From an uncultured archaeon (GTDB taxonomy: Archaea > Asgardarchaeota > Lokiarchaeia > Sigyniarchaeales > SOKP01): a stretch of DNA of 64,000 bases. Of this stretch, positions 42,975-44,293 are shown piece by piece. The notes under the pieces are model-generated. The model was given only the letters and a program-made list of their open reading frames with translations. It was not told the origin of the DNA and ran no database searches. Where the stretch lies: positions 94,267 through 158,266 of the forward strand of contig CAZOYD010000002.1 in NCBI GenBank assembly GCA_964583985.1. Reading direction: 5' to 3'. A program made the translations under genes and the position numbers. Numbering within the stretch: position 1 is the first letter of the stretch; the number at the start of each line of letters is the position of its first letter.

Positions 42975-44293
42975 TATTTTAATCCCTCCTTGTTAGCCAT
43001 TACTATTACAGCGGCATAAGCTGCTCCTGGACCTCCAATTGAGTGAGCTATAGCCCTTCCCTTCTCAATCTGAACTTGATGTTTCCCGGCTTCTCCTCTT
43101 AATTGTAAAGCAGCTTCCCCAGTACTCATTATTCCCGTGGCACCAACTGCATGACCACATCCTATCAAACCACCGGAAGGACAACATGGAAGTTCTCCAT
43201 CCAACCAAGGACCCTCTCCAGATTTCTCGAATGTTTTTTCAATCCAAGAGCCTCCTTCACCAAAAGGGACAAATCCAAGTTCTTCATAACTGATTACTTC
43301 TTGTCCACTAAATGCATCGTGTAATTCTGCTAAATCTATTTGATTTTTAATTTTATTATAATCGAGTGATGCCATTTTATAAGCTGCTTTTGCAGCATAA
43401 ATATTTGAATAAAGTCTTCCCATATCTTCTCTATTTCCTATAAAACAATCAGTATTTGCAGCTCCTACTCCAGTTATCCAAATTGGATTTTCAATTTTTA
43501 ATTCCTTTACTTTTGCTTCACTTGCTAAAATCAATGCAGCAGAAGCTTCTGAATATAGACAGCAATCAAGCATTTTAAAAGGATAACAAATTATCCGAGA
43601 ATTCATCACATCTTCCACGGTAATTTCCATCGGAGATTGCGATTTAGGATTTAACATTGCGTTTCCATGATTTTTAACGCTCACATGAGCCATTTGTTCT
43701 TCTGTTGGATTACCAAATTCCTCATAATGAGCATTAACCATTGAAACATATGATGAGGCTGCCATCAATGGGGATATTTGGGAGTTCCAAACTATATTTT
43801 CCCATCGGATATTCTTCCGCTCATATAGTAAATAAAATAACTATACAATATACGTCATATCCGCACTATAAGCAATGGCGTTAAGTACTTCGGGAGTAGT
43901 AGTCCCCGTTTGCTCATCATAACAATCATTACATTTCTCCACACCAAGACATAGGCACAGATCAGACAACCCTGATGCTACTTCCGAATAAGCCATCCTC
44001 ACAGTATATCCTCCAGTAGCCCCTCCAGATGCAATCCGCGTACCCGGTTTATTATTCATCCCGAGATACGAATTAATAAAAATATCTGGCATGAATTGTC
44101 GTTCAAATAATTCATTATATATTCCATAGACTGTTGATTCTAAATTTTTGTGGGTTATTTCTGCACCATTCTTGTTCGCATCTTTGAGAGCGAGTTTTGT
44201 AGCATCGTAAGCGAGTTCGAAATATGTTTTATCCAAATATCTTGCTCGGAAGGGGGTGATTCCTACCCCAATAATTGCTACTTTTCTTGACAA
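42974..44293 (-). CDS. SCP-x-type thiolase-family protein, three exons: 44293-43850, 43814-43799, 43767-42974 (417 aa after splicing)
   Basis: Spliced junction YSADMTY|EYPMG(M)|MAASSY; ASGGATGG, ELHDAF, SGGLIGCGHAVGATG; the two ORF-track halves are in the same frame and the two inserts total 66 nt. Confidence 0.85.
43768..43798 (-). other. putative 31-nt relaxed BHB mRNA intron (intron C; boundaries +/-1 nt)
   Basis: Minus strand TGGG-AA|A-ATAT-AGT-TTGG-AACTC-CCAA-ATAT-CCCC-AT|T; removal is needed to restore frame after the 16-nt micro-exon. Confidence 0.72.
43815..43849 (-). other. putative 35-nt BHB/BHL mRNA intron (intron B)
   Basis: Minus strand CGGATATG-ACGT-AT|A-TTGTATAGT-TATTTTATTT-ACTATATGA-GCGG-AA|G-AATATCCG: 7-bp exon-exon helix, central helix, 9-bp intron stem. 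Confidence 0.85.

Follow-up and report, generated by a model that had tools for sequence, protein, structure and literature searches.

A predicted bulge-helix-bulge intron in the mRNA of a Lokiarchaeia thiolase-fold gene and its probable spread between alleles

As far as our literature searches reach, the only bulge-helix-bulge (BHB) intron described in an archaeal coding sequence (CDS) is that of cbf5 in Desulfurococcales and Sulfolobales (PMC2738675). A 2020 paper names it as the sole archaeal mRNA BHB intron other than that of Haloferax HVO_1309 (PMC7714728), which is also cut by EndA but is 46 nt long, lies in the 5' untranslated region and breaks no reading frame; Yokobori 2009 mentions unconfirmed intron predictions in further genes (PMC2738675). 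Here we describe intron B, a 35-nt insert in a lipid-metabolism gene for a thiolase-fold enzyme, located in a 64,000-nt window (the whole stretch of DNA analysed, G000:C2:94267-158266) of a Lokiarchaeia genome of 3.8 Mb and about 32% G+C. Intron B resembles the cbf5 intron in being short, in lying within an archaeal CDS, in its predicted cuts between bulge nucleotides 2 and 3, in the hetero-oligomeric EndA of its host and in its patchy presence. The cbf5 intron, however, occupies one site in one gene, is explained by one gain followed by losses, and its splicing has been shown, whereas the present case concerns an Asgard archaeon and a metabolic gene with two introns around a 16-nt exon, nine intron sites among orthologs, several intron-bearing genes per genome, lateral spread and splicing that is predicted. 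No published mRNA intron of an Asgard archaeon was found in a literature search that reached few subscription journals.

The tRNA introns of Asgard archaea (Valentin-Alvarado 2024, PMC11291895; 10.64898/2026.10.13.758758) share with intron B the type of host, repeated gains, BHB boundaries, an (αβ)2 EndA and the lack of a donor elsewhere in the genome. Both papers treat tRNA genes only; the preprint, which never mentions mRNA, calls the arrival of Asgard introns the central open problem, and its tests concerned copying inside a genome rather than spread from allele to allele across species (10.64898/2026.10.13.758758). The homing-endonuclease BHB introns of Thermoproteales (PMC4496867) also move between alleles of one locus, which in their case, unlike that of intron B, is an rRNA gene.

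In the account that we regard as very probable, intron B is an mRNA intron of the EndA/RtcB type that had a single origin and spread as DNA patches. The pre-mRNA would fold into an exon helix, a bulge, a central helix, a second bulge and an intron hairpin, an EndA of the (αβ)2 type would cut after the second bulge nucleotide on each side and RtcB would join the exons. Removal of intron B together with a second intron (C) would yield a thiolase-fold enzyme of 417 aa. The intron would have arisen once, at a hairpin-prone site, and would later have moved as DNA between diverged alleles in short recombination patches containing the flanking codons needed for the fold.

The thiolase-fold gene (44293-42974, minus strand) is returned by open reading frame (ORF) calling as pieces of 150 and 264 aa. 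Unspliced RNA would encode a 150-aa fragment; removal of B alone gives a 174-aa product and removal of B and C the full frame. A preliminary description had noted a 35-nt frameshifting intron with an in-frame TAG (at 43843-43841), a 7-bp exon helix, three of four central pairs, bulges and an intron stem, and all of these are present in the sequence, although the span given there started at 43808 and so omitted two nucleotides of the exon helix, which ends at 43806. This helix joins 43863-43857 to 43812-43806 by seven Watson-Crick pairs, six of them with a predicted pair probability of about 0.7-0.8, and is adjoined by a G43856.A43813 mismatch. The central helix (43855-43852 with 43820-43817) consists of an A.G mismatch, C-G, G-C and U.G; with three of four pairs and A.G or A.A at the first position, it is invariant in carriers and corresponds to a slightly relaxed BHB. 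There are two 3-nt bulges, and the 9-bp intron stem includes two G.U pairs. The hallmarks of a BHB intron found in B are the bulges, the flanking helices h and h' and cuts after bulge nucleotide 2 that restore the product. The folding energy is unremarkable (z about -1 to -1.7, not significant) and was not used as support.

Table 1. Positions of the intron elements, exons, shared patch and neighbouring genes. Coordinates are those of the window unless a contig of genome G000 is named.
Feature	Position	Strand	Remarks
Intron B, 35 nt	43815..43849	-	9-bp stem 43848-43840/43829-43821, 10-nt loop, central-helix strand 43820-43817
Exon-exon helix (h), 5' arm	43857..43863	-	invariant in 7 intron variants
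Central 4-bp helix, exon strand	43852..43855	-	3/4 positions pair
Intron C, 31 nt	43768..43798	-	relaxed BHB without exon helix
Micro-exon 2, 16 nt	43799..43814	-	encodes EYPMG + 1 nt
Exon 1, Cys-less SCP2-type/archaeal thiolase-fold gene	43850..44293	-	TTG start assumed; Pfam Thiolase_N
Exon 3, thiolase-fold gene	42974..43767	-	Pfam Thiolase_C_1; ortholog in G006 up to 96% identical
Laterally shared patch, approximate extent	43726..43892	-	~42 nt upstream of B to ~40 nt downstream of C
ChsH2/DUF35 zinc-ribbon OB-fold partner gene	42480..42974	-	translationally coupled
SCP2 sterol-carrier-like gene	42106..42516	-	operon gene 3
Second thiolase-family gene, 30-nt BHB insert	29912-29941	+	in-frame TAG; 4/4 central pairs; 7-bp intron stem; absent in G017 ortholog
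Four more 29-31-nt frame-breaking BHB inserts	C2:~24787; C26:~12729; C66:~14277 and ~14382	-; +; -	

The boundaries of the insert are set by comparison with intron-less orthologs, which read DMTYEYPMGMM across the site; the insert is absent at the exact point in 77 ortholog copies. When a 35-nt excision was slid over 13 registers, only the register of the EndA cuts at the BHB restored the ortholog sequence, including the residues DMTYEYPMG that had been expected after splicing. The three paralog motifs cited earlier in favour of the intron (at 21516, 29750 and 28612) are present as well, but these alignments indicate that the intron-less orthologs give stronger support. Near-identical DNA occurs in salt-marsh metagenomes, the best-matching run possibly being the source sample of the assembly. 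In three such runs DNA contigs read through the inserts without a gap, and one of these contigs is a variant with 6 differences; the insert is therefore not an assembly error.

Inserts of 28-35 nt are carried by 18 of 83 distinct copies of the gene, at nine sites (CDS nt 384, 387, 447, 450, 463, 545, 917, 923 and 928, with B at 447 and C at 463). All 40 ortholog inserts at these sites fit a BHB central helix of 3-4 pairs in a protein-restoring register, and their removal restores frames of 400-430 aa in every full-length carrier except L092, which reaches 309 aa after three inserts are taken out and in which the boundary at site 917 is uncertain. Intron B itself is 28, 29, 30, 31, 34 or 35 nt long depending on the carrier, thus occurring in all three frames at a fixed site. 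Among seven B variants, 97.7% of the alignment cells that should pair do so, with 3 double-sided changes, as compared to 0 of 500 shuffles and 28-58% in slid controls, a statistic that rests on related sequences and is not a true probability. The three double-sided changes fall in the intron stem, where 95% of the cells are paired; the exon and central helices show no variation.

Two EndA paralogs, of the (αβ)2 type, and one RtcB are encoded in the host genome. One of them, the alpha subunit, gives a gap-free alignment with the A. pernix enzyme that covers both the CSL loop region and the catalytic residues Y/H/K; the other has no catalytic His. The CSL loop region has been linked to broad specificity (PMC6379350) and, judged by its sequence, the host EndA is of the broad-specificity type. 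From the insert, its boundaries, the conserved fold and the enzyme genes we infer splicing in vivo and the identity of the acting enzymes, and we are highly confident that intron B is a BHB intron that would be removed from the mRNA.

The preliminary description had further proposed that the spliced product imitates a tRNA anticodon arm. The 7-bp helix and the loop geometry are as described there, but the analogy ends with them. Consensus tRNA loops have Y32, U33, R37 and a canonical closing pair. The spliced loop has A, C and U at positions 32, 33 and 37 and is closed by a G.A pair; it has 7 nt only if that pair forms, and predicted folds leave 8-9 nt open. Moreover, a loop of 7 nucleotides (4+2+1) with the joint after nucleotide 6 results from every BHB that has an exon helix, so that the geometry is no independent evidence, and six of the nine intron sites in the gene have no exon helix.

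Nevertheless, the exon helix is clearly associated with the intron. All other stems of this kind in the spliced gene are shorter, and all 7 bp are present in 6 of 6 distinct B carriers as compared to 1 of 77 non-carriers, with the reservation that, given cassette transfer, carriers are not independent samples. The carrier helix codons GCG, ACG and CCG are rare otherwise (each in 5-7 of the 77 non-carriers), and 36 of the 77 already pair 5 bp at the site. With common codons in place of GCG/CCG, the predicted probabilities of the BHB pairs fell from about 0.8 to values of 0-0.4; with ACG>ACT the central helix was lost. The simplest reading is that intron B, having a central helix of 3 pairs, can persist only at places where an exon helix lends support; the strong helix would then be present for this support and not as an imitation of an anticodon arm. 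When positions in intron-less genes were ranked for a pre-existing hairpin in the register of B, site 447 came 2nd and site 928 3rd of 1180, and the nine sites together, which are not independent, gave p about 0.03, suggesting that the introns modestly favour sites with pre-existing hairpins. The tRNA-mimic wording should thus be dropped, whereas the hairpin preference and the lateral spread are worth following.

The same hairpin-prone sites could be taken to favour the insertion model of the preliminary description, in which EndA cut an anticodon-like mRNA hairpin, a ligase inserted intron RNA of foreign origin and a DNA copy of the product was made, and an EndA of broad specificity (PMC6379350) would suit such an event. 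Yet the helix-free sites are difficult to reconcile with it, and retention bias predicts the same association of introns with hairpins, as indicated by the collapse of the BHB fold with common codons. No near-identical donor of B was found elsewhere in the host genome by similarity search, although the assembly may lack some tRNA loci: the best other match, 25 of 35 nt, is at the level of shuffled sequences (24-26), whereas transposed tRNA introns of the Thermoproteales type have a near-identical copy at another locus. A search of the host's tRNA introns with ARAGORN and a BHB scorer returned only noise, and no PF00078 reverse transcriptase was found in the 100%-complete draft genome. The preprint on Asgard tRNA introns likewise found copying or reverse transcription unsupported as a general route (10.64898/2026.10.13.758758). 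Insertion of intron B by reverse splicing is possible but unsupported, and we consider the insertion model as a whole unlikely.

The distribution of intron B suggests another route. On a gene tree built without the intron region, monophyly of the carriers was rejected (approximately unbiased test, p=6e-7) and B requires at least 4-5 changes. Over CDS nt 405-502 (98 nt) the carrier L042 differs from the window gene by 1 mismatch (99% identity), as compared to 78% identity elsewhere, and this patch contains the best 90-nt segment among 3290 distant pairs. L027, the intron-less sister of L042, is 85-87% identical to L042 outside the patch and 74% inside. In the flanks outside the BHB, L042 and the window gene have 1 mismatch in 58 positions, whereas 1820 intron-less pairs average 12 and never have fewer than 4. 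Raised flank identity was also seen in the carriers L003, L123 and L089. L042 and L019, whose third positions are 49% identical, have identical B introns of 34 nt, and intron identity at sites 450, 545 and 928 is 84-93% in comparisons of genes with about 50% identity at third positions. A chimeric assembly was considered as the source of the L042 patch and found unlikely, given that the templates are only ~78% identical at the patch edges and that other carriers show raised flanks.

Non-monophyletic carriers and a near-identical patch of about 100 nt imply that the intron spread laterally. These identity patterns indicate that B and C travelled together as a cassette, on a short patch of DNA, and for several carriers of B lateral DNA transfer fits better than separate insertions; that the route was recombination is what we infer from the short patches. 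The alternative that B is ancestral and was lost many times without lateral movement has a precedent in the documented intron losses from cbf5 (PMC2738675), and the introns of L022 and L089 have diverged, with the flanks of L022 at background level. It is nonetheless improbable, as ancestry cannot account for the same 34-nt intron and a 98-nt patch of 99% identity in genes that agree at about 50% of third positions, and for L042 it is contradicted by the drop in identity to its sister inside the patch.

Homing would spread an intron to intron-less alleles with co-conversion of its flanks. A two-sided shared patch surrounds B and C, and similar patches also occur without introns. The mobile BHB introns of Thermoproteales rRNA genes encode an endonuclease; intron B has no coding capacity at 35 nt and so no intron-encoded endonuclease. 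The idea that ORF-less BHB introns of ~30 nt are spliced from many Lokiarchaeia mRNAs and actively driven into intron-less alleles of other species by biased gene conversion is one that we put forward as speculative and rather doubtful. If true, with the drive acting for example through destruction by the intron of the target of a nuclease in trans, this would be a minimal system of homing introns among archaea related to eukaryotes.

Several points weigh against the account of a spliced and laterally spread intron given above. The central helix of B is only ~50% formed in the predicted ensemble, and no RNA run containing this stretch, and no spliced read or circular intron, was found. Intron C is an awkward case for the helix-support idea, as it has no exon helix beside its 3 pairs and is predicted to fold in a slipped form; its cutting register is rare in silico (~5%) and a slipped register dominates. 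Finally, comparable short high-identity patches between distant alleles occur away from introns, so that the data show recombination and not intron-specific drive, and ordinary interspecies recombination is enough.

The remaining explanations dispense with splicing. In a split gene, exon 1 would be read to the TAG and the remainder re-initiated at native Met codons to give two chains; Met codons are present at the start of exon 3 and the 264-aa frame runs from 43768. We regard this as very unlikely since it deletes an invariant motif, leaves the exact BHB geometry unexplained and does not work for the introns that orthologs have at 384, 545 and 917-928, where the 917-928 group lies inside the HDAF active-site motif. 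A pseudogene broken by hairpin insertions would account for the stop codon and frameshift of the genomic frame, but is scarcely credible: the window gene and L002 (95% aa identity) differ by 148 synonymous and 20 non-synonymous codons, indicative of purifying selection, the genome has no intact ortholog elsewhere, and at least 8 diverged genes have retained this intron, with compensatory changes. Ribosomal bypass or excision at the DNA level would restore the frame too, but hardly any weight can be given to them as each of the 9 sites has boundaries that agree with the geometry of EndA cutting, both inserts are retained in DNA contigs of the strain and the joined forms that were seen have the codons found in intron-less relatives.

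If the predicted splicing is true, multi-intron mRNA splicing by EndA and RtcB would be routine in these Asgard archaea, and intron-bearing genes would be mis-annotated as split or broken. The locus illustrates one route of intron spread, through short interspecies DNA patches that bring the exon bases needed by the fold, and the same sediments supply intron-bearing and intron-less alleles for direct comparison.

Micro-exon 2, between the two introns, contributes 43812-43806 to the B exon helix as its 3' arm and also supplies the 5' strand of the C central helix. Of the two, L022 has only B and L018 only C, which shows that they are separate introns. The C intron of L018 is at the same base as other C introns and only 48-58% like them, possibly an independent gain; L018 has four introns in this gene. 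In run X1, a low-depth contig skips intron C (window 43767-43801) and has a different Gly codon, and represents another allele in the same sample. The intron sites cluster 3-16 nt apart (384/387, 447/450/463 and 917/923/928, the last group in the HDAF motif), which may reflect hot spots or intron sliding. Of 42 introns, 38 start with A, most end with AA or AT, and the mean G+C content is 28%.

A homology census of 164 genes against relatives identified five further BHB inserts of 29-31 nt in G000: one in a second thiolase-family gene and four in Rpo1N, one unnamed gene and, as a pair, a single gene, as seen against G008/G017 orthologs. The contigs were chosen for holding the thiolase-fold gene and introns of the relatives are invisible to the census, which gives no per-genome rate. 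A de novo genome-wide scan for BHB folds with frame joining was powerless, with similar counts for real and decoy sequences, and missed B and C, which are too closely spaced. ARAGORN at default settings called only 22 tRNAs, probably as many have several introns, and predicted a tRNA-Sec at C27:19492-19584 of G000.

Close relatives of the thiolase-fold gene are labelled Promethearchaeota/Promethearchaeia (= Lokiarchaeia), and exon 1 is 88-97% identical to Promethearchaeia orthologs. Within the genome no second close copy was found, the nearest paralogs having about 30% identity. The best structure matches of an intron-less ortholog are thiolases in PDB. The protein has Gly at the position of the nucleophile Cys of the archaeal thiolase 7yvy, and an Ltp2-like aldolase role is plausible for such a Cys-less protein. 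The gene is also mosaic beyond the introns: identity to L002 is 79% in the 5' part and 88% in the 3' part, and a 90-nt stretch at about CDS 770-860 is shared at 97-98% identity by genes that are otherwise about 80% identical (L002, L059 and L069 compared).
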